Shown here one piece after another: positions 1-19,920 of a stretch of 20,000 nt of DNA; position 1 is the stretch's first letter; each line of letters begins with the position of its first letter. The stretch covers positions 115,024 through 135,023 of the forward strand of contig PS015489.1 in NCBI GenBank assembly GCA_048213135.1, in the 5' to 3' direction. Under the pieces are notes generated by a model. The model was not told the origin of the DNA. It made no database searches and saw nothing but the letters and a program-made list of their open reading frames with translations. The position numbers and the translations under genes were made by a program. The DNA is from Reclinomonas americana ATCC 50394 (taxonomy: Eukaryota).

Positions 1-1263
1 GCTGCGGCTGCCGCCGCCGCCTCAGCGTCAGCCTTCTTTTTGCGTCGCTTGTCGCGAAAGGTGACTGCCAGTGCACCGCCGACCGACATGAGAGCGCACA
101 AGACAAAGCTATCGCCCAGGACGCGAATGGTGAGCACCACCGGCCGAAGCATGAGCGGTGGGTGCTTGAAGGCGTTGCTGATCGGTGGAATGAACGCCGC
201 AATGACCGCCAAAGCGGCGGTGATGGTTGGCGGATTCAGAAAGGGCTTGACGAGTGACTTCCAGAGTGGTGGTCGCGGTGTCGCAGCAGCAGCAGATGGT
301 GTTGTCTCTTCTGCGCTCGCGAGAGGTGTGAGAGTCGAGGCAAGCAGATCACTGCTTGGCGTGACCGCACAGACCATCCAGCTGTTGGTACGACTGTTGC
401 TTGGGAGGCGAGAGCATCGGCAGTGCAATGATCCACGGAAGCGTCGCAGACAGCACAATGAACAGCGACACGTAGCTGCGTGCACATGCATGGTGATCAG
501 GAACCATTGCAAGAGAGAGAGAGAAAGAGAGACACCCGCGCAGCAACGCACCCACTGGCCAGCGTCGGCAGATCAACGCCAGGCTCCGCCACACTCGTAA
601 ACACATCGCTCGACACAATCGTCGTGCTCATAGTCAGCGGAATGCTCCCTGCCAAACAAGCAGGCAACTCTGAGCAGCACACCTCGCCAACACGACACAG
701 CATGCACAACCAACCATTGTTCATAAACACCGCACTGGCCATGAGAACCGGTCGCAACGATCGATGCTGTGGCGATCGCATGCACAGACCAAAGATGATC
801 CATGCAACCAACATCCCGATTCCTGTCACGTGGTCAACATAGATGAAAGAGAGAGAGAGACACACAGGAGGAGAGCACTTCATTACTCACCATACACAAA
901 GATGGGCGCCACCATCAGCACCCACAGTTGCGGCAAATCGTCGACATTGACAGTCGCGACAATCTGCACGGATGATGAGATGATTGTTTCCTCTTTGCCT
1001 GCCTCTCGCACAGCTCTTACCTTGCTGAAGAGGAATGCTGGAATGATGAGGTAGAACTGCATCTTGGCCAGCACCTCCGAGAACGAGTCGTGCACCCATT
1101 TGCCAATGATCAGCAGCGCGCCTGCATTGCATTCACAATCACTCTATCGCCTGTGTGTGAGAAAGAGGGAGAGCGACGCACCACTGCCTGCCAACAGAAT
1201 GACCAGGAGCACAGAGGCTGCTGCATCGGCAAAGAGCCGCAACAACAGCGCTCCGTCGAGCAT
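1..1263 (-). CDS. Auxin efflux carrier (AEC/Mem_trans) family membrane transporter, PIN-LIKES (PILS)-like; 3' end lies outside the window
   Basis: Exons 1263-1182, 1121-1021, 963-891, 822-715, 648-552, 475-375 and 310-1 are joined by GT-AG introns of 57-76 nt with consistent phases. The protein reads MLDGALLLRLFADAAASVLLVILLAGSGALL...FYLIIPAFLFSKIVATVNVDDLPQLWVL...AVFMNNGSIPLT...GYVSLFIVLSATLPW...FLNPPTITAALAVIAAFIPP...LGDSFVLCALMSVGGAL. This matches PILS-type motifs (PALxFS, GNLPL-like, NPPTIA, LGD...LGGNL). Confidence 0.85.
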
Positions 1264-1360: not shown

Positions 1361-4300
1361 CTAGTGCGGGAAGAGCACGAATTCGACGGCAGGCGGAGGC
1401 GAGCGGATGAGATCGGTGGCGTCGGCGGCGATCAGGCGCACGGCGAGGAACGACATTTGCTCCAGAGCCACCACAGTGCTGTTGGCGGCCCACGTGCACA
1501 CCATGCGTTTTACGAAGCCGCTGCCGTCGCGTGGGAAGGCGTTGGGCGAGCGTGAAGATGTGGGCACCACCGGAACGCGGACCACGTGCATCCATGTGGG
1601 GTACGCCACACGGGCGCTCTCAAATACGCGCGGCCAAGGGATCTGTGCGGGAACGGGAATATGAGTGGCTGTCTCGCCAAGAGTCGAAGAAGCATCGGCA
1701 ACGTGCAACTCACCGATCGTTCGTAGCCATAGTACGGAACGTAGATGCGGATGGCGCGCCAGTCAAAGTCGAGCACGCACGCAGTGCAGCATCCGTCGAG
1801 CACAGAGGTGGCTCCGCGAGCGGCCAGTAGCTGCGAAGAAACCACGTGAGACCACCGCTTCGTTCGCAGAGAGAGAGAGGTGAGTGCCACGCAACTGCTG
1901 CCTGCTGCCTCAAGTTCTCCTGCACAAACAGCTCGGTGACTTGCTGCTGCACGTCACGTCTGAGCGACGTCAAGCGGTCGTGATGGAACATCTGCGAGCG
2001 TCTTCAGTTGCAGCTTTCACACATTTGGTATTCTATTTCAACGAACGTACCGCCCGGCGCAGTGTGGTGCGCGTCGGCATCGACAGCTTCTGCCCGATGC
2101 TCGTGCGCAGCATCTTGTGAACACCGCGATGCACCAGCAGATCCGAGTACCTCCGGATCGGACTGGTGAATTGCGTGTAGGCGTCGACGTTGAGCGAGAA
2201 GTGCATCAGGCCGGCCTGCGCGCGACCACACGTACTGTCAAGGAGGAGTAGAATATGCACAGCAAACACAACGACAACGCACTATTGCTTCGGTATTGGT
2301 GGTATCTGACACATCAAAAACGGTGTATCCGCCGGCACGCATGTACCGTGAAAACAGGTGAACCAGTGCCTGTGCGTGCACCATTCTCGAGTCAGTCTCA
2401 TGTACCGTCTCTCTATTTCGCGAGACGATAACAGTACCTCCTTCCTGACGTCCGAGTCGTTCAGTGCATCGACCAAGCGCATGCAGCGGCGCAAGTAGTG
2501 CAAATCGTCCTCTCCACGCTCCTCTTGCACTCGGAAAATGGCTTCGACGCAGCGCGCAAACGTCTGTCGGTGTGGTGACGGATCGCTGTTGCGTGCTGGT
2601 TGGTGGCGGAAAATGGCACCAAACTCCTGCAACTCCTGCCACTCCTCGGCCGTGCGTTGCTCCTCCGCAGGGCACGGTATCAATTCGCACACCGGTCCGA
2701 GTGTCGCCGGCACCGTCACTTCCGCTGCGCTCACAAACAATCACGCGAGGTGAGCTCACATGTGCGACGGTAAACTGCATCTTCGAATCACACCTTTGCC
2801 GCCACGTGAGGCACTCAGGCTCAAGAAGCGACGGAGATGAGCGGCGCAGTGCGTGTTGGCCAGATTCATGAGCTCCTCAATCATCTGTGCGGCCAAGTTC
2901 GGGCGCTCGAATGAAAGCTCCACAGAGCCCACTGTGTGCGTTGGCAGGGTGTGAGGCGACAGGGGGGAAATGAGGCGACACCAAACGACGACACTTGCAA
3001 GCACGCTCACCACCCGGCAACGCTGCGTCCTTGCGGTATGTGCCACCAAACACCTTCTCCGGACGATCGAGCGACAGCGCACCGCCAACCAGGCGCTGGC
3101 GGCGCAGGCTGGCGGTGATTCCGTACAGTGAGCGCACAGCGTTGAAGACATCCTCCACGCGCTCCGGCGGCACCGAACGCAAAGCGGCGGCCGACGGTGG
3201 GAGAGTGCCGTCGAGAATCGACTGCGCCGTCGGGTAGTCGAGAGCGACCCACGACGACACAACACTGGTGCACAGACGCGACGAGATGACGATAAAGTCG
3301 CCCGAGCCCTGTGCACACCACAAAAAGAGTGAGTGCGCACGAAAGATGTCACACGCATCTACTGAAGCAAACTCACCGGATCGTGGCGCACGCGCACGAG
3401 AACCGACAAGCACAAGCGCTCCGTGTTCGGGTTCAGGCTGCAAACGCCGGCCGAGATGCGCTCCGGCAGCATGGAGTCCACGGCACCGAATGGCGTGTAC
3501 ATGGAAATCGACGCCGCCTTGGCCGCCAAGTCGAGCTCCGATCCCTCGGGCACATAGGCCGCCACATCGGAAATGTGCACACCCAACTCAAACTCGCCAC
3601 CTGCGACTCGCAAATGTCAGCTGCAACTGCACGTACGAGTGCGGCAGTGAAGACGACAGACAAGCACGCACCACCGACATGGCGCAAGTGCACTGCATCG
3701 TCCATGACGTTGGTGTCGGGTCGGTCGATGGTGAAGACGCACTGTGCGCGCAGATCAACACGCTCCTCCAACACTGCACAGAGCATCTCGTGAACACATG
3801 CATCATCTGTCAATCCCACTTCCACCGACATGCAGCAGCGTACCCTTTGGATCGACACGCGCCTCGCTGCGCATGAGTCCCGGATATCGGTCGTCGACTG
3901 GCGCCGCTGTGGCGAATTCGGGGAGGCGGTAGAACAGTTCGGCGGCCTCGTCACGCACGCACTGGAATTGCAAAAAGTAGGCCACCTCCACGGTCTTCAG
4001 GTTGGAGGCGTCGCCCAGGACATCGGCCACACGTCGCACCGACGGGAAGCCTCGCTTCTCCGTCCAGTCGCCCAACTCCACCGAGAGGATCTTGCCCATC
4101 AATCCTTGCGGACCCGGCAGTTTGTGCGCATGCGCCGCACCCGTCATCTGCTTAATGTGCACGGCGCAGCGCGGCAGACGGCTGTTCAGCGGCTGAAGCA
4201 ACGTGAAGAATTCGCCGAGATTCGTCGAGTCGTCGAGGATGCCGACGGCGCGGACCACGCGCGGTCGGTCGGCGTACACGATCTCGCCAGTCACCACTGT

Positions 4301-4766
4301 TGCACAAACACCAGCAAATGATAACCAAGCACGAAACAGGGGGGAAATGCACAGGCATATCGCGGCACCTTCAGACAGTGTCCGGTCGCGCAGCGGGATG
4401 GGTGACGCGCTAACCTCGCCATCAGAAGTCGGCTGTGGCGCACAGTGAGCACGTTGCTCCTCAAACAGCACACATTGTTATCAATCCTCACACGTACCTC
4501 GTACAGGCTGACCACCACGTGGTCGCCATCGAGAGCACGATTGCGCAGCGTGGCTGACAGGATGCGCACGACACCACCATTGTCCAAGCCGACTTCGGCG
4601 TACGAGTCGCTCTTGCAGTAGAGGGTGCCCTCCATCAGCTTTCCCGATCGGCAGCCGGCGTCGAGTGACCGCGGCGACAAGTACGGAGTGTAGTTGTTGC
4701 TCGGCAGTCCTGGCGGACCGACTGCCTTGAGCGACGAGCCGCGTGGACGACTGCCACCGGCGTCAG
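1361..4766 (-). other. CSD1-CSD2-RNB-S1 region (DIS3/DIS3L2-type exonuclease core, no PIN domain)
   Basis: CSD1: [10 protein letters not shown]...GKLMEGTL...[17 protein letters not shown]2: PLNSRLP...[113 protein letters not shown]1: [22 protein letters not shown]. Confidence 0.93.
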
Positions 4767-7172
4767 CTGTGTGGCGAGGTGAGTGACAAGCACCCGACAG
4801 CAGGAGACATGAAGAAGTATGGACGAACCAGCAGCCGAAGCAGAGGGGAAGAGAGGACCACTGGTCACCTCGTCGACTGAGCCACCGTGCGCCTGGTTGA
4901 TGAGGATGGTATGTGTGCGAGCGCACGCGTCGACCAGCGCCTTGAGCAGCGGCGGCTTGTTGAAGGCCAGCAGATTGCAGTCGAATTGGACCGGATCCAC
5001 TGCGCGAGTAGGGAAAGAGGAAGATGAGTCGGGGGAAGTGATGCAGTGCGCTCTCGCCAGAATGCATGCACGTACCGACTACGAATTCACGCGCGTCATC
5101 TCCGACACGGTGAGACAAATGCACCGAGAGCGTCAGGTGATGGAGCGAGCACACGGCATCGGTTTGCCAATCAAAGTCACGCAGGTTGCCGAACAGCGAG
5201 AAAAAGTCGGCCACCACTGCTTCGGTCAGCGAGTCCTCCTGTTGACGGAAAAGCAGCAACATGAATACTCATAGAGCAAGCGCGCACACCACGCATTGCA
5301 CTATCTCTCTCACCTTCTTGGTGGGCACCGACAGAATTTCCGCGGCCAGATCCGACATGAGGAACGCGGTCTCGTCGTGCGACTCGGGATGGCGCACATC
5401 CTCCAGGCCGTGCGTCACCCACCCGGCCTGGAAGGCCTGCGCGCCGACCTTGACCATGAAGCCGCCAATCAGATCGGTCAGTGCGGGGAGGGCCAGGGCC
5501 GTCGAGTATGTCAGAGCTGGAGTGATCTGTGTTGACGTGCAGTCAGTCAGCATTGAGGGGGAGAAAGAGAGTTGGAGGAAGAGAAGAAACACGCAACATG
5601 TGGGTACGGCGCCAGCTGCTGGATGCGTGCATCTTGGAAACGCGCAAACACCACTTCGGCTAGCCGATCCAGCGCCTCAATACCGTCGGCACGCCGATTG
5701 CGCGACGTGCGCTCCAACACAAAGTACACCACCATGTGGGCGAGTGCCTCGAGCGAGATGGAGTCGTCATTCTCGAACCCCAACAGATCGGCACGGCACC
5801 ACGCGGTGAGTGACGGCAGCTTTGCTTGCAACGCCGCCACCACCTCTGCCGGATCCTGCAAGTACGGCACCGCGTAGCCACACGTGCGTGCCCAGTGAAT
5901 GACCGCATCCAGCAACTCCACAATCAGCTGTCGCTCTCGCGGTGTGTACGTCTCCAGTGCCTCATTCAGCGCCGTCATCTGCGACTCTAGTGTCAGTGGT
6001 TGCGGGGAGGGACACGACTGCCGAGAGACGCAACTCCAGCCATGCGCCAAAAGATGTTGATCGAGACGTTGAATCGCTGACTGGTGCACATGCAGTACAG
6101 ACCCGACTTGGCGCGATGCTTCATGCGCACGTCGGTGTAGTTGCCGGCTGAAGCACACACACACGAAATGGAAACAGAGTGTCAGAGGTAGTTCGAGAGG
6201 CGGGAAACAAAGGAGCAGAGAAGAGACAGCGCATAGAGAAAAAACGACAGACCTCTAGAGAAGGTGGCATGCTTCTCATTGAAGCAGAAATGTAACACTG
6301 AGTGCGGAGAGAGAGAGAGAGANNNNNNNNNNNNNNNNNNNNNNNNNNNNNNNNNNNNNNNNNNNNNNNNNNNNNNNNNNNNNNNNNNNNNNNNNNNNNN
6401 NNNNNNNNNNNNNNNNNNNNNNNNNNNNNNNNNNNNNNNNNNNNNNNNNNNNNNNNNNNNNNNNNNNNNNNNNNNNNNNNNNNNNNNNNNNNNNNNNNNN
6501 NNNNNNNNNNNNNNNNNNNNNNNNNNNNNNNNNNNNNNNNNNNNNNNNNNNNNNNNNNNNNNNNNNNNNNNNNNNNNNNNNNNNNNNNNNNNNNNNNNNN
6601 NNNNNNNNNNNNNNNNNNNNNNNNNNNNNNNNNNNNNNNNNNNNNNNNNNNNNNNNNNNNNNNNNNNNNNNNNNNNNNNNNNNNNNNNNNNNNNNNNNNN
6701 NNNNNNNNNNNNNNNNNNNNNNNNNNNNNNNNNNNNNNNNNNNNNNNNNNNNNNNNNNNNNNNNNNNNNNNNNNNNNNNNNNNNNNNNNNNNNNNNNNNN
6801 NNNNNNNNNNNNNNNNNNNNNNNNNNNNNNNNNNNNNNNNNNNNNNNNNNNNNNNNNNNNNNNNNNNNNNNNNNNNNNNNNNNNNNNNNNNNNNNNNNNN
6901 NNNNNNNNNNNNNNNNNNNNNNNNNNNNNNNNNNNNNNNNNNNNNNNNNNNNNNNNNNNNNNNNNNNNNNNNNNNNNNNNNNNNNNNNNNNNNNNNNNNN
7001 NNNNNNNNNNNNNNNNNNNNNNNNNNNNNNNNNNNNNNNNNNNNNNNNNNNNNNNNNNNNNNNNNNNNNNNNNNNNNNNNNNNNNNNNNNNNNNNNNNNN
7101 NNNNNNNNNNNNNNNNNNNNNNNNNNNNNNNNNNNNNNNNNNNNNNNNNNNNNNNNNNNNNNNNNNNNNNNN

Positions 7173-7254
<82 letters not shown>

Positions 7255-8103
7255 GGGAGGGGGAGGGAGAGAGCCCAAGAAGATCCCCAACTCTGGAGAT
7301 GCGAGCGTGCTCCTCAATGAAGCAGACATGCATCACCAACTGCTCATACAGAGACCAAGAAGAGATCTCTGAACTCTCAAACTCAGGGGAGACAAGAGCA
7401 ATCAGTGAAGCAGACATGGTGCTCACAGAGAGACTGTGAGACCAAGAAGAGATCTCTCTCAACCCAGCTTTGGCAAAGATGAGCACGCTCCTCAGTGAAG
7501 CTGCCATGACGCACCAACCTCATTCACTGCTCTTCCCAACTGCTCGTGGAGGAGAGATCACTACCCTCACTTCCCAATGCTCAGTGAGCGCCACCCATCT
7601 CCCATCTCCCATCTCCCATCTCCCTTCTCACCCTGCTTGAGTCGCCGAATGACATCCTTGATGGCGGCGACGCGTGCATCGGGATCGGCCTCGCACGTCG
7701 GCACCGCCGGCAATACCACATGCGACACCGACGCATCGACAAACGCCGGCACCGACTCGCGCTCAATCAACGACACTTGCAGAATGTCGCGCGTCGAGTG
7801 CAATGGCAGAAACGGCGACGCAGACAAGAGCACAGGATGACACTCAATGCCTACACAATGCGCGCCAAAAATTGATCAGCAATCAGAGACAAGTCAAACT
7901 GTCGCTGTTACTTCAGTGCGCGCGCATGTATATGTGTATGCAGAGAGAGCAGAGAGAGAGCGAGCGTGTGTGTGTGTGTGAGACAAGTGCGTGCGTTTGT
8001 GCGCGCGATGGTCGTGACACATGACCACGCAACTCTTGTGTGGCACGGCCAGTGCGACTTCCAGCTCGCGCAGACATGCCGCGCGTTGTGCGTCCAAGTC
8101 CAT
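1361..8103 (-). CDS. DIS3L2/RNase II-family (RNB) 3'-5' exoribonuclease with an N-terminal degenerate Cid1/TUTase/Trf4-like nucleotidyltransferase + PAP-associated module; about 1303 aa, 20 exons
   Basis: Exons: 8103-8034, 7850-7632, 6147-6035, 5978-5598, 5526-5314, 5238-5076, 4999-4829, 4766-4498, 4432-4369, 4296-3844, 3773-3672, 3600-3377, 3308-3011, 2931-2794, 2724-2438, 2369-2283, 2215-2051, 1991-1896, 1830-1714, 1642-1361. All introns are GT-AG, phases are consistent, and the total of 3912 nt ends in TAG. Extra exons could be hidden in the N gap. Confidence 0.8.
6307..7250. repeat. (GA)n microsatellite flanking the gap (6307-6322 and 7172-7250)
   Basis: Perfect GA dinucleotide runs on both sides of the N run. 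Confidence 0.95.
6323..7171. other. Assembly gap (849 N)
   Basis: Run of N flanked on both sides by (GA)n. Confidence 1.
7271..7520. repeat. Degenerate intronic tandem repeat, unit about 80-90 nt, about 3 copies
   Basis: GAGACCAAGAAGAGATCTCT at 7351 and 7438, with a variant at 7271. TGAAGCAGACATG at 7318 and 7406, with a variant at 7496. A related TGAAGCAGAAATG lies at 6280, on the other side of the gap. Confidence 0.7.
7594..7624. repeat. (CCCATCT)4 heptamer tandem repeat at the 5' end of the long intron
   Basis: cccatctcccatctcccatctcccatctccc. Confidence 0.9.
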
Positions 8104-8451
8104 TGTGAATGCGCGGGCTTGTCACAACAACCACGACAAAAAGGAGTTGTCCTGCAGCTGCATGCATGCAAACCCAGCGACGTCGAAGCTAGTCGTTCGC
8201 TGCCAGCTCATTCTTTGTACGCTTTACATAATGCTGCATACAAGTCGTCTGTGCAGCGAGCCTGATCGCGTCACGTCCATGCATCTTGCGCGACGTCGTG
8301 CATTGCAAACTTCGCCGTGAAGAATGCACCAGCTTGCTTCACACAACATGCACTACACCGCTTGAAGATGCATCGTACACCACTCTGTCTCAGAAGAAAG
8401 CTGTGATCGCATGCGCACAGGACACGCGATTGCACGGACCCCCACCCATAA
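8104..8451. promoter_or_regulatory. Putative bidirectional promoter / head-to-head intergenic region (348 bp)
   Basis: Lies between the divergent ATGs at 8103 (-) and 8452 (+). Inferred from gene geometry only; no core motif identified. Confidence 0.45.
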
Positions 8452-9665
8452 ATGCGTCTTTTGAGCGCAACTTGCTTTGCACTTGCTCTGTGCCTGGCCG
8501 TGGTGCTGTCGCTCAGCGCAGCGCCCACTCATGCAGTGCCACCCACCATGCCTCTGTACTATCAGATGGAGTGGGTGCTGTGGCATGTTGCGTTTGTGTT
8601 TCTCCGAGGTTGACTGCACACACTCCAACTCACTCGCGCGCACATCAGGTGGACGAAGACAACATCCCGCCTCCATATGGACTCACTCCGCCTCCGAATG
8701 CGCATGTGGAACAAGGCCGCGGTCGCACGTTTTACGACTGGACGCAGCGCGCAATGATCGAGATGTGTGTGCACAAGAAGAAGCTTGTGTATTGTGTGGA
8801 TCGTCAGCTGCTCATCTTGTTTTTTGGTTGCAGTTACGACGACTTTTGTGTCAACATCTTCCCCGATCCCACTGACCATCCGGGCCCATGCAAGTTCCTC
8901 AATGTCAACGAGACCTCGTTTCGCACCACTCTGCGTCGACTCATCACTCGCAGCCGGAGGTCTCACTCGTTTGACTGAACGCAGGTACTTGATCAACAGT
9001 GATCCGGTGCACTACCCCAACGATCCCGTGTGCTGCGTGTTTTCGGTGCGTTTTTTGCCGCGATGCTTGTGATGTCGTGTGTCGTCTCACTGCGGCAACA
9101 GCACAACTTCCATCCTCCGGCGCCGACCTTCTTGATCGACAACAAGGATGTGATCCCGAATGGAGTTGCGTGACTCTCGCTTCCGTCTCTTGCTCTCTGT
9201 CTGCGACCTCTCATCTGTGCTGTGCAGATGTCGTACATTGGCTCGGCTCCGGTTCGTGGCACTCATGCGAAGCGAGAAATGCGTGCGCTCACTCACGTGT
9301 GTGTTGCAGGTCACCTGGTACGAGGTGCCGAAGGGTGATGGCGCGCCATTCAACTATGGGTGCGGAATATCTCCCGTCGTCACTCATCCTCTGCAGCACT
9401 CTTGCTCACCTTCTTTGTCCTCGCTCAGCTTCTACGACGAGAAGGCGCCGGTGCCGGCCGCCTTTAGCTTCCCTGCCGTCACGGTTCGTGGGCGCGTGCT
9501 GTGCTCACCGTGTCACGCCTTCGTGAGTTCTCACCTGTGCAATTGCGCACGCAGGGTTGGGACTGGCAGCGCTTCTACAACTTCCGCGCCGCCAAGCCTG
9601 ATCCGAGCGTCTTCCACCTGGATCCGCGTTGCCTCACTGCCGACTACTGCAAGATCCACCTGTAA
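8452..9665 (+). CDS. Secreted ependymin-related (EPDR/LolA-fold)-like protein, about 232 aa, 9 exons
   Basis: Exons 8452-8586, 8649-8764, 8834-8917, 8985-9045, 9102-9164, 9228-9251, 9310-9359, 9429-9483 and 9555-9665 have consistent phases and end in TAA. Signal peptide MRLLSATCFALALCLAVVLSLSA, then PPTMPLYYQ, GRTFYDW, CCVFSHNFHPPAPTFL, and C-terminal FYNFRAAKPDPSVFHLDPRC, which resembles EPDR-like proteins. The gene model is secure; the family call is tentative. Confidence 0.7.
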
Positions 9666-9866
9666 TGCGACGCCGCGTTCACCAACAACAGCAGCAACAA
9701 CACAACACAACAAATTTCAATTTTTTCAACGTAGGCACAAAAAACATCTCAACATTTCGAGAAAAAACACAGTGAACAACAACAACACAGAGAAGCACAC
9801 GCAGCTAATCACGGTGTTCTCTTTTTTAAGAGTACAAATACAGCAGTCTTGCAACTGCAAAACGGA

Positions 9867-12800
9867 TTAGAAGAGTTTGGTGAGGACGTCGCCGACTATC
9901 AGTTCCACGCCGAAGCAGCCGCACAGGGACATGGTGAGGAGTTTGATGGGCTCTGTCAAACGGCGGTTAAGACTCTGCTCTGCTGCACAAGCGGCGCGTA
10001 CATGTAAAGCACACTCACCGTTGATGAGCCAGTCCTCGAGAATGCTGAAAGCCGACGAGTTCAACACCGACCGTGATTCGGATTTCACCAGAATCGCGGC
10101 CGTGTTGAGCAGCGCCAAAAACGTGCAGAAAGCACCTGCAGCACATGTGTTAGGGGGACGTCACAACACCAACTGCTGCGGCCGCAACGCACACACACGT
10201 ACCAATAGTCCAGCACGCCGCCAGACCCCAGTACTGCGTGGGGAAAATGCCAAAGTTAGTGATCAGCAGCAAATGCACGCGCGACGACAAGAACAACGTG
10301 TGTATCGCACCACGAGTGTGTATGGCAGTGTTTTGGCTCGATACCGAGCAAAGAGACGACCGAACCAGCCTGAACATGAACACACGGTGGAGTTGGTATT
10401 GTTTCATGCAACAAGTCAGGGGATACTACGACACCTTTGCCGGTGACATCCGCAGCGACAAACTCGTTATCCAAGACACTGTTCAAGTCGGCAGTATTCT
10501 CGTTTGCTTCCGCGGAGCTGTCGTTGTTGTCCGGAGATCGCAGTGCTTTGTGGCGCACCAACGGGACTTTAACAGGGGTGCCCGAATGCGCCGACTCCAC
10601 GTCCGACTCTGCCACCAGACGACTTGATCATGAGCACACAAGCATGCACAAAAACATAAAATGAATGCAACACTTGCCATCGTCACTCCACGAAGCAACG
10701 TCGTCTCCAATCAGCAACAGGTGCTTTGTTGGCGTGCCCTGTCGGTGAAAGAAAACAATCAATGAGCACGGCAGGAATGAACACATAATTTCTGGCGGCA
10801 CGCACCGGAAGGGAGCCACCGTCGCTAGCGAGCGCACCGGTCATCCTCTGTCGTTGTTGGTTGGCCAACATCAACGGCAGCGGCGGAAGACGATGCCTGC
10901 CCCTGTGTTCATCCGGCTGTTGTGGCTCGCCTTGCGCGCCTCTGGCCGCCAGCAACCTCGTCAACCATCCACTTTGCCCTTGGCTGACCATCAACGGCGC
11001 AGTTGGCCGCATCTCCGTGGGCGATATCTGACCGGAACGAACGAAGGCCACCATTGCCTGTCCATCCTGCTTGCGCACTCAACTCGTCAGTAGCTGCAAC
11101 AGCATCGCGAGACACCACCAGCACGATATCAAACCGTCGGCACCGGCACGATTGGAATCAAATCAGGCAAGCGGCCATCGTCGGTGCTGACAGTGAGCGG
11201 ATGCGGCGGCTTTTGCACGAGCTCCACTGAGGTGTTCGAGTCCGTTCGTGACACTGCACATGTAACACATGAGACGCAAGAAATGGCAGACGCGCCTTGG
11301 AGGGATGACGACACGCTCACCAGTGCTAGCGCTCATAATCGAGTGCCTCTTGCCATCTCCCTCAGCAGCATCAATCTCGCGCACCAGCGCCTTCAACTTG
11401 GTGAGCTCGCCAACCTCGAAATACGTGTCGCGGAGCGTCACGCGCGGAGTATGATCTGCGAGATTCATCAGTCTCGAGTAAAACGCGATAAAGCGGTTGG
11501 CAAGTGATTTGGGTCCGCAACTGAATGGTATGCTCATCAAGAACGCAAAGGGGAATACGATCAAGCCTGCAATCACAACACACAACATGAGCCAGAGTGC
11601 ATTCTGGGGTAACAAAAACAAAGCTTCATCTCACACGCACCAGTAATGATGCCTGCATAGCCACACATGAGGTAAAAGGTGAGAATATTGCACATGTCTT
11701 CTTGCGGCAATAAAAACGAGGCACATACCAATGTAGAAATCGCGCAGGAGGTCGGTGAGCAACGACGCCTCGGCCTGGTTGGCAAAGATGCTGTTGATCC
11801 ACATCATGAAGCACACGGTGACCCAGAGCGTCTGCACAACACCGTTAGTTGCCGACAAGCACTCAGTTATACGCTATCGCCGCTGACGAAACAGTGAGGC
11901 GCTGGTACTTGCGGAATGGATCGATACGAGTGCCAAACACGGTAGAGAGCCTGCAATTAGAGAGAATGCACCACGGTGTCAGGAGATGCACGCGCGCGCC
12001 ACGATATTCAGTGTCGATTCACTTACCAAGCGTGGTGGTGCAGGAAAAGGCTTCGGGTTTTGGCTGTCCACTTGACGAAACGATTGCGCTCTCGCTCATG
12101 CTCAATCACACGAGTCACCAAGCCTGCGAACAAGAACAAGACCAAATCAGTTAGCAGACGAGAAGAGCGGTGGTGCGAGTGAGTACATCGACGAACCGCG
12201 GAATCGTGCAATCGCCTCCATGTGCACACGGATCGCCTCACGCTCACTCTCGGGGATGAGCTGTTTTTCCTGCTCCGGCTCTGCGTCATCGTCGAGCTCC
12301 TTGCCATGCCCACTGCTCTCCTCCCCACCGACAGCCTCCCTCTCGCCATCCAACGGCATGTCCACCGTGGTCTCCACAACACCCGTTCCGGCCGCAGTGA
12401 CCTCCTCCGCCCGAGCCTCGGGTGCCGACAGCAGTGCCAGCGGGGACTCGGAAACATCGCCGGGCGTACGTCCGTGCGACCGCTCAGCACTGGCAGCACT
12501 CGCCGAACTGTCAGTCCGCATGCGAGTGAGAGGAGAGGCTCTGGCACCCAGCGATGAGGAGCGGTTGCGCAGTCGGAAGGGCGAGCTGGACGACGAATTC
12601 ATGTCTTCGTCAGCCAGCAGCGCCTTGTCGCCTTCGCCAGCAGCCGCAGCCGCCTTGGCCGCCAGTTGCCGCCGCTGACGCATGACCGCCATTACGACAT
12701 CGCTGCCAAAAGACACCAGGGAGTTGAGTGGAGAGTGCAGTGCAAGTATCAGAGAGCAGTGGTTGACGCACGCGAATGAGAAGATGCCACGATACGGTGG

Positions 12801-15800
12801 GAGGTCGGCCTGCGAGTGCGCAAGACATGAGTGAGATCATCCCTTGCGCAGCGATGCGGATGCAAGTGAGAAAGACCTCAGATCGTTTCAGAGCACGCCG
12901 TGCAATGATGCGTCGCGCCCAGTACTCTCGCACCGCCAGATCGTTGGCTTTGTCGATCTTCCGCAGCACAAAGTAGAGAATCACGTACGCAATGTGAAGC
13001 ACTGCATGCGACGACTTGTTCAGTTCAAGAGCTGGCATTGAGACGTGCACGAGTGCTGCAACGCAACGCAAGAGGAAGAAAAAGTTGGGGCTGACCCACA
13101 AGGCGGGTGTCAACAACAATCCGATTTCGGCCGGACTCGTAAACGTGAACTGCAAGTCAAAGATCTACACGAGCACGCACAGTGTGAGAAGGCAATCACA
13201 GACGCACTACGCAACATGAGAAAGAGAGCAACGTACTGCTGCCACGTCCACGGAGAAGTCCGTCGCATGATTGCAGGCACAGTACACGCTGGTCAGATTG
13301 CCAGAGGCACCGACAGTGGCGAACGAACGGCAGCCCGCCGGCGAGAATGCTTGCGCAGTCTGATGACGAGCTGCCATGAGTACCACGACACGACGACGCG
13401 AGAAGCACAACGAAAAAGTCGCAACTGGGTCCCAGGCGACGCACAGATCCAGGCGCCGCGGCAAGACACCCGAGGTGATGTTCAGCGCGTGCGGCATTGT
13501 GGTGTTGCAGATATTATCCAGTGGCACAAGACCGGTGGGGATCGAGAACGTGGCATTGCACTGTGTTGACCAAGTGAGAAACGTGCAACAAAGCATTGTG
13601 TAAGACAATCCCCACGTCGCACACAGCACACACCAGTCTCATTGCTTGCAGCACCTTGCGCTGTGAGGCAGAGCATGTCTCAGACAAATTTCGTACTTCT
13701 GCTGCCGCACACACAACAAAGGCAGGTGACGCACGAAATTCTCTTGCACGGCATCCGGAATCACTTGACCGCCCATCTTGATGAGGAGCTCCTGCGGCTG
13801 ATTCTTGACTTCGATGGGTGAACCACGGCTGTCGTAGAACTCGATTCGGTGAATCGGTGCAGCGAGCCACGTGCGCGCCTGCTTCGTGGCCAGGATGCTG
13901 GTGTATGGATTGGTCGAATTGGAATGCTGCACCACAAGCGCCGTGGCATCGTTGAGCGTTGAGTTGAGTGACTGCGTCGCCAGCAACACCGAGCCAAGGT
14001 GGGAAGTCGCTGAGTCGTCCGCCAGCAGTGCGCCAGTTGGATTGGCACCAGAGTACGACTGCACATGCCGGCAGTTCAGCACTGCTGCCCAGCATCACTC
14101 GAGCACAATACACACACACGTACCTGCACGCCAGGCGCGTCCACGTTGTTCGTCAACCGAGCGCCGACGATGCGAGAATACGCGCCACCCGAGTAAACAA
14201 AGGGATCGTCAGTCGCCTGCACACATTTTCCATCAGTCTCTCACGCGCACACACATTCATGCACATTGAGATCGAGGTGTCACGCACGCGCTGGGCGACA
14301 GAGGCCTTGACCACGTTCTCAACCACCGCCGAGCTGCGATCAACAATGGCATTGAACAGAGTCGACTTGCTGTCTGTGGTGGCCGATACCGATGTGCTCA
14401 GCAGCGAGTCGGCAATCTGGAGCACATGCTGGGAGACACAACAGTGGACACGTTGTTAGCGGCAGCGTGATCGCAACACACAACCACAATGAGGTTACCT
14501 CACGCTCGGCGGAGGTCAACACAGAGCTGGAACTGGCGACGTTTTGCAACGCCGACATGACTCCATCGGCCACGCCCGCGACAGTCACTGACGTCGGTGA
14601 CAGAAGCGGAACAGAGCTACGCGAAGAACATAGAGTGAGAGGAAGGAGCGTCAGCGCGGTTGCACGAGGCGCTCAGTCATCAATGTGTGCAGACCGCCCA
14701 CCTGCTGAGAATACGAGCACTCTGCAGCACCACTCGCGCCGCGTCCGGGAACGCTTGGCCGTCGATCAGTGACGACGCGCTTCCAAGGCGCGACGCCATC
14801 ATCGCCAAGTAGTTCTCAACCTGCGGACCTGCGTCACGATAGCACACTCGCCGCATTAGCGACACGGACGTGACGTACACAAACGCAAAACCAAGTGTAT
14901 CGAACCATTTCCGCCATTCAACACCTGCTGCAAGTTGGCGGAACCGTCGGCAAGGCTCAGCGTGGAGTACAAGGAACATGCCGCAGTGATGGCTTCTGAG
15001 GACGTGGTGAGTGGGCCTGCTGCGGTTGCCGCTGCCGCCGCCGCCGCTGATTCTCCGACAAATGCGTTTGCGCGACCGAGGGCCGTGGAGAGAGCCGGAT
15101 CTCGCGCCACCGTCACCGTCGTGGTAGCCGAGGTACTGCGCAATGAATGGGTCAGCCCAACTGCGCACTTGTGCTGCCAAAACGCACTAGGAACACGAAC
15201 CCTGCCAGCAAATTGTCATACACCGTCACGCCCACCGACAGAATGTTGCCGTCGCTCACTCCCGCCGGCAGAGTAACACCCGCAAGGGTCGAAGAGGGCT
15301 GTGAACCCAAAGGGACCATGGAGCCGGTAGCAGACACGTAAAAGAACGTGTAGGACAGCGGCACACTGCAGCAAGTTGCTTGAGCACGGGGACGGAAGAA
15401 ACAACAGCCGGCGAGAGAGACGCAACTCGTCATCAGTAAAACCAGCGGCCGTGATTGTAAACTTGGTGGAGCGTTCAACGCCACTGGCGGGCGAGATCGA
15501 GACGGTGCCCAGCGAAGGCGGACGATTCATCTCCAGGGTGATCGAACCGGTGGCGGAGTCTGTTCGACCGGTGAGTCGACGAGGATATTACGTGCCCACA
15601 ACCACATGACGCAACTAGATCCGGTGACGTTCAGCACGATCTGGTACTTGCGGCCGGCGGTAAATGTGTTTGCCGGCACAGTGAGCGCGCTGCGGTTGCT
15701 GTTGGTGGCCAGCGGCACCGGTGTGTTGGGAGTCGAGGTCACATCCGTGACCCCCCACGAGTAGTTGACAGAGTCGCCGGCAGCCAGTGACACCTTGCTG

Positions 15801-18800
15801 TCCACCAGAATAATCTTCGCCGCATCGTAGCGCGACAATGACACTCCGCCAGACGTCGTCTGCGCACAATGAAGGATGAGTGCCACGATTTGCCGAAGGG
15901 AGAAGAGACCAAGTGGATCGCTGACACACCGTCAACAAGACGCCGACCGAGCCAGCGACAGTGAACGACGCGGTGGCGGTGGCGGATCGCCCGCCGCGCG
16001 AAGCACTCACTCGGAAAGTGTACCTATGTGCGAACGAGATAAGCGACCATGGGAAGTCACGTGAAACCTTCAGTGAGACGACGCAACACTCCGGCCACCA
16101 GCTCGGTGCCCGACAACTGGATGGACTCGGCAACACTATTGTCGCGAGCACACGGTTGTGCTTTGCTGCCGTCGGCAGGTGTCACTGTGCACGCCCAACT
16201 GACTGTCGCAGGCGCCAGGTTCTGCACAACTGACAAATCAGCAATCGCCGAAGAAACAAGGGCCCGACACACACCACGAACCAGAATCGGTGCCGTTGCC
16301 GCGTCCGGATCGCGCAAGACCGCGGTGAGCGTCTTGGTGCCGCCCACAGGCACCGAGCCACCGTCGCCATCGATAGCCAAGCTGAGAGGACGAGTCACTG
16401 CAGGGGACAGAATGGTGCGACGGTGAGCACGCTCGTGTCAGCACAGCATGCAGGAAAACACACACAGCCGTACCCAGTGCCTGCACCCGCCACCCGGAGC
16501 GCTGATCGGTCTCATTTGAGATGAAGCGGATAGCACCGGTGTTGACACCGAGCAGTATCGACTGCGTGGGCACGGTGGAGCCAGTGAGCGCCAGCCGGGT
16601 CACCGCTTGCCCAGCGTCGGCGTACAGCGTCAGCGAGTCGTCGGTGGCCAAATCGAGTTGCGTGACCAGCACGACCACGGTGCCGGAAGAGGTGACACCC
16701 GATGCAAGCTGGGGAAAGGAAGGATGAGGAAGAGTACACACTCTGGACGACACACACACGGCGCACCCCGAATGTCCACGTGCAGTCGAGATCCGGCATG
16801 TAGGCCGGCACACTGGTGGTTCGGTCGGCCAGCGTCACCAGTGTTCCCGGCGTAAGCGTCACGGCGGTCAATGCGGCACAGGTGGGTGTGGCCACCGTCA
16901 GCGAGACTGGAGTCTTGACAAACGCGGCGACTGCGTCCTGATAAAAGTCGACGCACAGGTCGACTTGCACGCCACGCGCCTCAGTGGACGGAGACGCGAT
17001 GCGAAGTAGTGCCGTACGTCCATAATCGGAAACGCTGACAACAGTGACCGTGTAGCCAGTGGCGTTGTTGGCCGAGCACGACGAGCCGGCCAACACCGTC
17101 CTCCACGAGTCCACGCGCGACAGGCCACTGCTCGGCAGGCGCACCGTGCGCGCCACAGTCATACCGGACACCAGTGTGGGATTTGCGGCCGTCATGGTGG
17201 TGACGTCGGGAACAGGAATAATGTGCTTGATGCGCCCTTGACTGTTGATGGAACGCTCGCCGGCAACGACCCAACCAGTCTGCCGATTCACATCGAGACC
17301 GTCGCCGTACATGATCATATTCGTGTCGGCATTGGTCAGCCCAGCACAGCGGTCCGTGCCGCTCTTCGTGAACGGCTTGTATTTGAGAGCATCGCGCATC
17401 GGGATGTCGTCCTATTCGAGTGCGCTTCTCGGTGAGTGACGGACGATTACAGGCACACGGAGGGCAACTGCTGTCTGCACGCAACAAGCACAGACGTCGG
17501 AACAGCGGCTGACAGCGAGGTGGAGCCTCTGTTGGGGCCACAGTATGTGGCAAGACTGCCCATGACAAGAACAGCTGGGAGCGCGTGGTCGCTGGTGTCG
17601 AACGCCCACAACTACGAACAGCAAAGGAGGTGAGTGATGGAGGAAGTGGGAGACACGCAGTGCGCGACGCAACTCCGCTTGTCGAGAGATCGTACACATA
17701 CATGATGTTGTCGGGTCCTTGCGCTACACACACACAGTGGCACGTCAGGAGACGGAGGGAGAGGCAGAGAAATCACGAAGGTAACGCACCCAGTACACGA
17801 GGGGCGGGGATGGCCGAAGTGGCGGCCACGGTGGAGATGACGCCGTTCCGATCCACGTAGCGCACAGCAAAGCTCGGCCCCTCACTCTCCGTGTAGTAAA
17901 AGCCGCCGTTCTTCGACAGAATCACATCGGTGGCCGACGATGCAGTGGCGCTCGTCGCCGGGATCTGCTCGCCGCCAAAGACGCTATTATTGGTGCCGTT
18001 GCCGGCAACAAATCGCTGGCCCGACACCGGATTGTTGAGAGGCACCCAGATAACCTGTGTGTACAGGTGAGATGGACGCGACCTGGAACACAAAAAGCAA
18101 TAAAGTGAGAGAGCCACGCAACTCCACTGCCACCGTAGCTGGCAGCCAGTAAACCAGGCGGCGGAGTCGGCAGCTGCACGTTGGAGGTACCGGCCGGCAC
18201 GAATCGCGGGTGGCGCAGATTGGTGGCAGGAGCAGCGGCGGGAGCGAGGACCTGCAAGTTCGTCGGATTGCCCGACGCATCCAGATTGGAGACTGCACGG
18301 GTGCGTGAGTGGACGAACAGCGCTAGCGCGCGCACAACACATTGCCACAACAAGCGTACCCAGAACACGGCCACCGGTCCACTCGTTGAAGTAGACCTTC
18401 GTGCCGTCGGTGTTGAAGTCCAGCGCGTGCAACACCTGCGCAGCGAGTGAGGTCACATTTCTCTCGTGCTGCTGCGAAGGAGACGCAACATTGGGCGTGC
18501 GCGTGGCAGGCGAGCCGGGAACCGCGGGATCGGTGGCCATCGAGTACGCAGCGTTGCAGACGCCAACAACCGGAGTGAGATTGGTCATCGCACCAAAGTT
18601 GAGCAGGTCCACATCGTAGCGCTTGCAGCAACTCGAATCCGTCGAGCACGCCCACACACTGCCCAGCGTCGGATGGATCTTCAAACCCACAACGTTCCTC
18701 AAGCCAAGCGCCGCCGTGTTCACGGAAACCACGCGGAAAACCGGGCGCGGAATCGGCGAGTCAATCACCAGCGTTGTCGGACCTGTAATCATCATGGTAC

Positions 18801-19356
18801 GATAAGCCAATCAATCACACTTGTGTGACAGCGCGCCTGAACACACCATCGTCTCCACTGAAGGCTGCCGAGCCCGCGAACTTGGCACACAACCGATAGA
18901 GATCCGGTTGGGCATTGCGCGGGACCGCAATGATGACAACGAACGAGGCATCGCTCTGGCGAACCGCGCTGGTGATTGATATCAATGTAGAGCTGCTCCC
19001 TGCCGCACACGTCTCTGCGTTGCGCACAAACGCCTGCACAGAGAGAGAGAGAGAGAGAGCGGGGCGGGAGTGAGTGGGCAATGTCACACTCACCACACGA
19101 AAACTCTTCTCGCAGCGCAGCGCTCATGCTCAACAAATGAATCCGTGTCACTGAAGTTCGTGCTGCCTGCTGCGCCTGACATGTTCAACCGCAGGCCACG
19201 AGGTGCGCTCTTTCCCGCGACAATCGGCACACCGGGACTGCTGTCCACAATCGTGATGAAAGCGGCGGGAGACGCAGCGGCCATACTCGCGCACAGCACC
19301 AGCATTGTCACGGCCACTGTCACCAGCGACGCAGTAACAAGCGCGCGGGTCCTCAT
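9867..19356 (-). CDS. Polycystin-1/PKDREJ-like cell-surface receptor: signal peptide, NHL-like propeller, CUB, REJ, GAIN/GPS, 5 TM; about 43 exons
   Basis: ATG at 19356 starts a signal peptide (MRTRALVTASLVTVAVTMLVLCASMAAA). The spliced frame is continuous to TAA at 9867 through about 42 short introns. REJ: NRPPSLGTVSISPASGVERSTKFTITAAGFTDDDVPLSYTF. GPS: CVAWDPTAQAFSPAGC...CACNHATDFSV. PKD1-type TM motifs: HAWLSTVFGTRIDPFRKYQRLTTLWVTVCFMMWINSIF, IGIITGLIVFPFAFL, LPYTLVYWGL, SAFSILEDWLINEPIKLL. Confidence 0.85.
10609..10677 (-). other. GC-AG intron
   Basis: Donor G|GCAAGT and acceptor GGCAG|. This join keeps the frame (WSDD-E-SDVES); nearby GT alternatives give a frameshift or a TAG. Confidence 0.7.
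13237..13450 (-). other. GPS motif (C-terminal end of the GAIN domain)
   Basis: After removing intron 13360-13425 the sequence reads CVAWDPTAQAFSPAGC...VYCACNHATDFSV, closely followed by TM1. Confidence 0.85.
15100..16400 (-). other. REJ module of the PKD1-like protein
   Basis: LSLAIDGDGGSV...LRDPD, VSWAC, YTFRVSA, YSW, LTVPANTFTAGRKYQIVLNVT, NRPPSLG, PLSYTF, TLPAG, VYDNLLA. Confidence 0.8.
16474..16880 (-). other. CUB domain of the PKD1-like protein
   Basis: YMPDLDCTWTF...VVVLVTQLDLATDDSLTLYAD...LTGSTVP...AIRFISNETDQRSGW. Confidence 0.75.
17200..18782 (-). other. NHL/teneurin-like beta-propeller repeats of the PKD1-like protein
   Basis: VAGNGTNNSVFGGEQIPATSA...DVILSKNGGFYYTE...VRYVDRNGVISTVA; ALDFNTDGTKVYFNEWTGGRV; GLDVNRQTGWVVAGE. 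Confidence 0.7.
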
Positions 19357-19920
19357 GGAGGAGGCACGAGAAAGAGGAAGAGAGAGACGAACGCGCGCAA
19401 AGACGGCGATGTTCAAATATGGCAATCAGAGCGAGCCATGTATTGTTGTCCAAGCCGGGACAATCGCAATTACATTGAATCTTTCCATGGTGAGCGCGCG
19501 CGCGCAGTGAGGCAGTGTGTGTGGCGCGCAGAGAGCGAGTGTGTGTTTCGCAGCAACAAGAGCAACAGGGAAACGAAAGATCGTGTCGTGTTTTTTGTGT
19601 GTGCGTGGTGATGTGAATCAGCACATGTCTCACTCTTTTTTTTGTTTCGTCGGCAGCGCGTCAAGGTGCTTTCGCGATCGGCGGTGGTGCACAAGGGCGA
19701 GAGGAATGGTGATTTGGTGCCGACGTTTCGCAACTTGAAGCCGTCGTTGCATCCGCTGGAGAGGGAGCGCGAGTACACGAGGGCGGTGACGGCGGCCAAG
19801 ATGGAGCGAGTTGCGTGGGGAGAGAAGAAGGGAGAGGAGAAGGGAGAAGGGATGGAGAGAGAGATGTGATGAGAGGAGGCGATTTGGTGGTGATTGCGCA
19901 ATCATGGGATTGAGAGGAGG

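Follow-up and report, generated by a model that had tools for sequence, protein, structure and literature searches.

A putative second class of 5' splice sites with an extra T, following exons that do not end in G, in a 20-kb window of Reclinomonas americana

The introns in one stretch of the Reclinomonas americana ATCC 50394 genome (contig PS015489.1, positions 115,024 to 135,023; 20,000 nucleotides, hereafter the window) begin in two ways, and the question raised by this locus is why about a quarter of them start with one T more than the others. The ordinary donors (5' splice sites) are GTGCGT-like, whereas the others, here called extra-T donors, are GTTGCGT-like. A preliminary description of the window had listed about 19 extra-T donors among about 75 introns and had proposed that they are read in a shifted register. 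In our study, all 19 listed coordinates were found to carry the motif, and a 20th extra-T donor was found at 19810(+) in the Sof1/DCAF13 gene, beyond the span of that list, giving 20 of 75 donors (~27%). All counts refer to this one 20-kb window, and all positions are those of the window.

Two sets of gene models were used. The donor-blind set came from a gene model solved by dynamic programming, in which the score was built from codon usage, a branch-like motif and the AG, and donors were told apart only as GT or GC. The final models were curated by reading the sequence and were checked by translation, and donor motifs served as a prior in them. The curated genes were open from start to stop and contained no internal stops, the RNB exoribonuclease gene being modelled in two pieces and the Sof1/DCAF13 gene being present by its start only. 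The curated set held 55 ordinary and 20 extra-T donors and 73 complete introns; 19 of the extra-T introns had both ends in the window, and the acceptor of the 20th donor lay beyond it.

The 19 listed donors comprised GTTGCGT (14), GTTGCGG (one), GTTGCGA (one), GTTTCG[T/C] (two) and GTTGAGC (one). The heptamer GTTGCGT was found 18 times on both strands against 5.32 expected (standard deviation 2.38), and 0 of 200 dinucleotide-preserving shuffles reached 18. Fifteen of the 18 matches were donors in the curated models; of the remaining three, 13215 lay within another intron, and 2588(+) and 16657(+) were antisense to genes. On the minus strand GTTGCGT was the second commonest 7-mer starting with GT, the first being a microsatellite word. 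Within gene spans, 17 of the 22 sense-strand GTTGCG sites were curated donors, as were 3 of the 10 other sense sites with an extra-T pattern, 41 of the 137 with the ordinary pattern (GT[GAT][CA]G) and 13 of the 1189 other sense GT sites. The donor-blind model called 65 introns and matched 11 of the 19 claimed extra-T donors exactly. Its errors were mostly in-frame introns that were read through and arbitrary GTs that were chosen; 33 of its donors belonged to neither motif class, and 27 of these 33 were absent from the curated set.

The last base of the exon separated the two classes. The 19 listed donors contained A at position -1 in ten cases, T in seven, C in two and G in none, as had been described. 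In the curated set, 48 of the 55 ordinary donors had G at -1, and none of the 20 extra-T donors did (Fisher p=1.1e-12); in the donor-blind set, the corresponding numbers were 19 of 21 and 0 of 11 (p=6e-7). Among the 27 donors that followed an exon end other than G, 20 were extra-T, and the seven ordinary ones were mostly perfect GTGCGT or GTACGT. The extra-T donors are confirmed as a real, strongly non-random pattern.

The two classes also differed in how closely they kept to one sequence. The heptamer GTTGCGT accounted for 15 of the 20 extra-T donors, whereas the top ordinary hexamer, GTGCGT, accounted for 11 of 55, and the GCG block was present in 17 of 20 extra-T against 15 of 55 ordinary donors (p=1e-5). 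The extra-T donors contained G at +6 in 20 of 20 and C at +5 in 19 of 20. The ordinary donors contained G at +3 in 33 of 55 and C at +4 in 33 of 55, with GTGCGT preferred (for example 9046(+), 17789(-) and 3671(-)). No difference was found between extra-T and ordinary introns in length, branch motif or acceptor. A GT start and an AG end were present in all 19 complete extra-T introns, and a branch-like YTNAY motif was found 6 to 45 nucleotides from the 3' end in 17 of 19, CTCAC being the commonest (9), with a distribution like that of the ordinary introns.

The placement of the introns was supported by the reading frame. Removal was forced, by length or by an in-frame stop, in 15 of the 19 complete extra-T introns. 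The called GT was the sole in-frame GT for its acceptor in six introns, four of which (18122, 15615, 11892 and 5597) were among the forced 15. The coding score per codon was -0.27 in extra-T introns against +0.16 to +0.19 in their flanks, and the same drop was found in ordinary introns. We infer that the extra-T sites would be cut in RNA at the called positions. A TT...AG reading, with the cut one base later, was set aside as needless; 8 of the 19 complete extra-T introns precede an exon starting with G, where the GT and the TT...AG readings give identical messenger RNA.

In the RNB gene (minus strand; here and below a slash marks the exon-intron boundary), the intron 1831-1895 (GCA/GTTGCGT) must be spliced because its length of 65 nucleotides is not a multiple of 3. 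Its donor was missed by the donor-blind model and was called once donor motifs were scored. PDB searches with both exons flanking 1895 gave no relevant match, and homology cannot fix that junction. The intron 5527-5597 (CAT/GTTGCGT) must be spliced and has the sole in-frame GT for its acceptor, and reading through 5979-6034 (GGA/GTTGCGT) meets an in-frame stop. The first intron of the gene, 7851-8033 (AGA/GTTGCGT), is 183 nucleotides long with microsatellites inside, and its acceptor was picked by the open frame. On the plus strand, 8587-8648 (CAT/GTTGCGT) lies in a small secreted-protein gene, and there the donor-blind model took an in-frame GT 9 nucleotides downstream. It is followed by 8918-8984 (CTC/GTTTCGC, that is GTTCG plus T), which is among the forced 15, and by 9165-9227 (GGA/GTTGCGT), which contains an in-frame stop.

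The remaining forced introns of the minus strand with GTTGCGT or GTTTCGT lie in the span of the REJ/GPS polycystin-like protein gene. The introns 11832-11892 (ACT/GTTTCGT), 15560-15615 (CTA/GTTGCGT) and 18055-18122 (GGA/GTTGCGT) must be spliced and have the sole in-frame GT; 16024-16087 (AGT/GTTGCGT), 17412-17485 (CTT/GTTGCGT) and 17612-17673 (GGA/GTTGCGT) are among the forced 15. The donors 16087 and 11892 had been described as fixed by the reading frame and conserved motifs. The intron 15366-15426 (CGA/GTTGCGT), which had been said to be fixed by frame and a conserved motif, must be spliced, and it is placed to the codon by the Pfam REJ profile: profile positions 302-343 are covered by the upstream exon (E=3e-9), the last of them by its final complete codon, and 345-402 by the downstream exon (E=1e-4), whose first residue opens the match, leaving position 344 to the split codon. 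At the 20th donor (19810-19816, plus strand, CGA/GTTGCGT) the exon ends AAKMER/GTTGCGT, and its alignment to four solved Sof1/DCAF13 chains reaches the last residue of the exon; on read-through the Sof1 alignment gains just one residue.

When aligned on GCGT, ordinary G/GT-GCGT and extra-T /GTT-GCGT form one 7-mer in which the second place changes from G to T. The RNA that recognises the 5' splice site, at first the U1 5' end and then U6, may therefore meet a single motif, G-[G/T]-U-G-C-G-U, in both classes. At ordinary sites the first G of the motif would be the last base of the exon, with the cut after it (G/GUGCGU). At extra-T sites, where the exon lacks this G, the first G of the intron would fill its place, and a U would be mismatched where +1G normally pairs. 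The cut would then be made before the sole GU at hand, a base upstream of where this register usually has it, and shifted-register U1 pairing would be a routine solution here rather than a rarity. The heptamer would be near-invariant because one pair is lost and all other positions must be optimal. In favour of a shift, A at -1, which would pair with U10 in a shifted helix, is enriched: 11 of 20 extra-T donors have it, whereas at the corresponding position of the ordinary class, -2, it is found in 12 of 55 (p=0.010).

A shifted-register helix of U1 (and U6) is the best fit to the extra-T class, although unproven. The wider claim, that extra-T introns are genuine GT-AG spliceosomal introns with a second discrete 5' splice-site class H/GTTGCGT (H being A, T or C) and that they are read in this register, appears evenly poised when its parts are taken jointly. 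The proposal in the preliminary description of a shifted register for about a quarter of the introns is partly supported: the motif alignment and the -1 statistics fit, while the energetics of a canonical U1 are weak.

In a duplex calculation, the canonical U1 5' end paired with the ordinary donors at a mean of -6.0 kcal/mol and took the canonical register in 51 of 55. Several points weigh against the shifted register, and the first is that the same U1 gave a mean of only -1.2 kcal/mol on extra-T donors, with the shifted register in 8 of 20, the canonical register in 0 of 20 and a meaningless register in 10 of 20. Such weak pairing makes a shifted helix with a standard U1 inadequate alone, and it sharpens the suggestion of variant snRNAs made in the preliminary description. 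The total lack of G at -1 is not predicted by a pure shift, as G could wobble-pair with U10, and the depletion of G at -1 of extra-T donors relative to -2 of ordinary donors is only p=0.031. For U6, too, pairing would have to move one base away from the cut. The sample is a single 20-kb window, and four of the 19 introns are not forced by the frame. These four, on the minus strand, preserve the frame and contain no stop, and their support comes from splice signals and coding score: 18436-18489 (AAT/GTTGCGT; coding score -0.20 against +0.34 and +0.38 in the flanks), 13360-13425 (CCA/GTTGCGA), 13002-13067 (TGC/GTTGCGT; the coding score dips) and 11456-11521 (TCA/GTTGCGG, in the REJ/GPS gene; coding score below the flanks). 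The intron at 13425 lies within the GPS motif; its downstream exon matches GPS profile positions 15-44, and with the intron read through the match begins only at profile position 10. The least secure of all is 19034-19134 (minus strand, TTT/GTTGAGC), where an out-of-frame G/GTGAGT was seen by eye about 41 nucleotides downstream.

Part of the energetic difficulty would be removed by a changed U1. With G at position 5 of U1, the mean for extra-T donors fell to -5.1 kcal/mol and 15 of 20 took the shifted register; with G5C6, the values were -6.9 kcal/mol and 16 of 20, the host U1 sequence being hypothetical in both cases. The literature, cited here from extracts of the papers, holds both kinds of precedent. 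Ostreococcus donors are GTGCGTG (PMC2483917). Mastigamoeba balamuthi prefers GUGCGC donors and has the U1 sequence ACGUAC with the G5 change, whereas Micromonas and Thecamonas prefer C at +4 and keep a standard U1 (bioRxiv 10.1101/2022.06.08.495308). The ordinary class of the window, GTGCGT-like with C at +4 in 33 of 55, resembles those of Mamiellales, Thecamonas and Mastigamoeba, of which, in these extracts, only Mastigamoeba has a matching U1 change. Because Micromonas and Thecamonas keep a standard U1 despite C at +4, which counts against our explanation, a co-evolved U1 cannot be assumed here, plausible as a variant U1 is. The extracts of the accounts of Ostreococcus, Mastigamoeba, Micromonas and Thecamonas contain no mention of an extra-T class or of a -1 rule. 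Mastigamoeba balamuthi is also like the window in its G+C content (60.7%) but unlike it in intron length (137 bp on average) and in its donor (GUGCGC), and the diplonemid donors as given in the available text, (G)/GTATG (PMC12621601), do not match those of the window.

Extending the class to the whole lineage is an extrapolation from 20 kb. We consider it possible, though on balance doubtful, that the lineage has made the one-base-shifted register a standard second class genome-wide, through a GC-adapted U1 (G5 or G5C6) or a second U1 variant. In that case G-K-U-G-C-G-U would be cut before its first GU, so introns may follow any exon-end base, and donor sequence and small nuclear RNA (snRNA) would have co-evolved into a new register, beyond a new consensus.

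The shifted register has relatives among known sites. The preliminary description had stated that rare human sites of the GUUAAGU type are read through shifted or bulged U1 pairing, and this is experimentally established (PMC4856993). In the human shifted register, every U1 base pair moves over by one nucleotide (Roca and Krainer, 2009, as described in Tan et al., 2016, PMC4856993), and the curated noncanonical registers amount in total to 2.1% of 201,541 human sites (PMC4856993). As these extracts describe them, the human shifted sites are like the extra-T sites in having a mismatch to the consensus at +1 of the register and in still being cut at GU. They differ in being a handful of atypical, AAGU-based sites, whereas here 20 of 75 donors share a fixed GCGU-based heptamer and strictly lack G at -1. 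A change from xG/GU... to x/GUU..., with the cut one base upstream, is also found in the unc-73(e936) allele of C. elegans, where one cryptic site is reportedly a GU made with the last G of the exon. The allele changes the intron +1 G to U and activates cryptic 5' sites (PMC6140464). It is deleterious and yields out-of-frame products, whereas in the window a quarter of the introns would have this arrangement normally and in frame.

Among the other explanations, the one that survives best is a dedicated reader: a second U1 variant, or a different snRNA, whose 5' end would pair without interruption with GUUGCGU in the normal register, as U11/U12 do for an intron class of their own. The two classes are discrete with hardly any intermediates, the heptamer is present in 15 of 20, and the canonical U1 binds extra-T donors at the weak energy given above. 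Lineage-specific changes of U1 recognition are moreover documented in Entamoeba (AACAAAC) and, as noted, in Mastigamoeba. By itself, however, such a reader leaves the absence of a preceding G unexplained, and since branch motifs, lengths and acceptors are common to both classes, one reader with two registers is more economical; we regard the dedicated reader as unlikely. The U12-type introns are a second, highly conserved 5' splice-site class beside the major one, but unlike them the extra-T class shares its branch sites and acceptors with the ordinary introns. A U12-type reading was rejected, the 5' motif RTATCCTT being present in 0 of 20 extra-T donors.

A bulged U would explain the same heptamer: +1G and +2U would pair normally, one U at +2/+3 would bulge, and pairing would resume on GCGU. 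This register is described in humans, with 68 predicted sites among 201,541 (~0.03%; Roca et al., 2012, as tabulated in PMC4856993), and like the extra-T class it has an additional U after GU that shifts the downstream consensus by one base. The -1 base speaks against it, because under a bulge -1 would still face C9 and G would be preferred there, as in the ordinary donors, whereas no G was observed in 20. In addition, minimum free energy duplexes with canonical U1 chose the bulge in 0 of 20, and the G5 variant mixed registers in at most 2 of 20. We therefore hold the bulged register to be improbable and the shifted register to be favoured over it.

Slightly lower still do we rate a reader other than U1 (U6, U5 or a protein such as U1C, LUC7 or the SNRNP27K/METTL16 axis), with local compensation between the exon side and the intron side. 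The published 5' splice-site classes AG//GUNNN and NN//GURAG show the same trade-off between an exon-end G and the intron side (PMC11732430). As in those classes, a lost exon-end G is offset here by a stronger intron-side motif, the class without G at -1 carrying the strongest, and C at +4, for which canonical U1 offers no pairing partner, is the preferred base of the ordinary class. According to the available text, however, the two published classes keep G at +5 and overlap, whereas the extra-T donors form a discrete class with C at +5 in 19 of 20 and the conserved G at +6, and compensation alone yields no displacement by one base.

An annotation artefact, in which some or many GTTGCGT sites are unused as donors and reflect hand-calling or a motif with another role, is very improbable. 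It draws on the calling of the sites from sequence alone, on the donor motifs used as a prior in the final models, on the four in-frame, stop-free introns and on the better-looking, out-of-frame donor near 19134. Yet the donor-blind model recovers 11 of the sites with the same -1 rule, the frame forces 15 of 19, 15426 is fixed by profile continuity and 19810 by Sof1 homology, the enrichment is confined to the sense strand and the coding score falls at the sites. A family of introners (mobile introns) carrying its own GTTGCGT 5' end, which the uniform heptamer might suggest, was rejected as having almost no chance of being right, as extra-T introns were no more alike inside than ordinary ones (mean local alignment score 8.2 within extra-T against 8.16 among ordinary introns) and hence are no copies of a mobile element; in length and branch motif, too, they match the ordinary introns.

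Shifted and bulged registers are a known kind of site; what differs here is the frequency, the fixed heptamer and the -1 rule, and the matter hinges on confirmation beyond this window. Literature searches aimed at such donors, or at a similar register or consensus, found no prior report, the supplementary donor tables for Mastigamoeba, Entamoeba and diplonemids being outside them. If genome-wide, this would be the first case found of a noncanonical 5' splice-site register as a major, rule-governed class, with about 27% of donors in the window against the ~0.03% (+2/+3 bulge) and ~2% (all curated noncanonical registers) of the human extracts cited above. It would offer a natural system in which to study the choice of the cut where the GU lies out of line with the U1 helix, would allow the co-evolution of U1, U6 and SNRNP27K-type factors with donor sites to be tested, and would predict a specific U1 5' sequence. 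With such confirmation it would interest the fields of splice-site recognition and intron evolution. Gene finders trained on one donor model only would overlook a quarter of this organism's introns or place them wrongly. Of the complete introns in the window, 11 of 73 (4 extra-T, 7 ordinary) keep the frame and contain no stop, and annotation based on open reading frames would take them as coding. Examples of in-frame, stop-free introns are 16222-16281, 12703-12771 and 4297-4368 on the minus strand and 8765-8833 on the plus strand.

The window has a G+C content of 55-61% (N gap excluded), is gene-dense and contains very many short introns. Six genes were recognised by Pfam domain calls and PDB sequence matches. 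These are a Mem_trans transporter gene (1-1263, minus), the RNB exoribonuclease gene (1361-8103, minus), the small secreted-protein gene (8452-9665, plus), a small membrane protein gene (9867-10844, minus; 194 amino acids, 6 introns), the REJ/GPS gene (11129-19356, minus; 1918 amino acids, 35 introns) and the start of the Sof1/DCAF13 gene (from 19487, plus; PDB sequence matches). Rfam and transfer RNA scans of the 20-kb window gave no family and no transfer RNA.

Searches of three exon queries against longer proteins gave no match, and exon-sized relatives were not searched for. An ESM Atlas search with Sof1 gave no match, and a REJ exon gave three rows there, all sub-threshold (0.82-0.83), two of them labelled 'commonest Euglenozoa'. 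A metagenome scan gave one locus, which was bacterial, with a kinase and an ammonium transporter, and was discarded as a false lead. An RNB exon had 5471 matches among representative proteins; the best listed showed 54-58% identity, and hence there was no close relative. The RNB nuclease most resembles RNase R of the bacterial type (8cdu was its best PDB match; library matches mostly 700-750 amino acids) and contains a long N-terminal extension for which the search against longer proteins detected no homologue.

The two pieces of the RNB gene model lie around a scaffold gap of 850 N at 6323-7172, which falls inside an intron and is flanked by long (GA)n runs (6301-6322 and 7173-7273). In the same gene region, the donor at 7631 (G/GTGAGA) has no visible acceptor, and CCCATCT is repeated five times at 7594-7629. 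The REJ gene model contains two tiny exons on the minus strand, 11641-11652 (12 nucleotides) and 13634-13660 (27 nucleotides), which are needed for the frame and have splice signals as their only basis. The sole 124-nucleotide intron of this gene, 12810-12933 (minus), has the donor G/GTGCGA; an in-frame alternative would have 57 extra coding bases and a 67-nucleotide intron with a weak G/GTCTTT donor. The last intron of the Mem_trans gene, 311-374 (minus), has rival donors 4 nucleotides apart, G/GTCTGT (374) and T/GTGCGG (370), each with its own acceptor, and the choice alters two or three residues. The first exon of the Sof1/DCAF13 gene apparently consists of ATG alone (19487-19489, plus) and is followed by a 167-nucleotide intron (G/GTGAGC ... 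CAG), after which, in the 19487-19656 region, the second exon aligns from residue 2-3 of the solved Sof1 chains.

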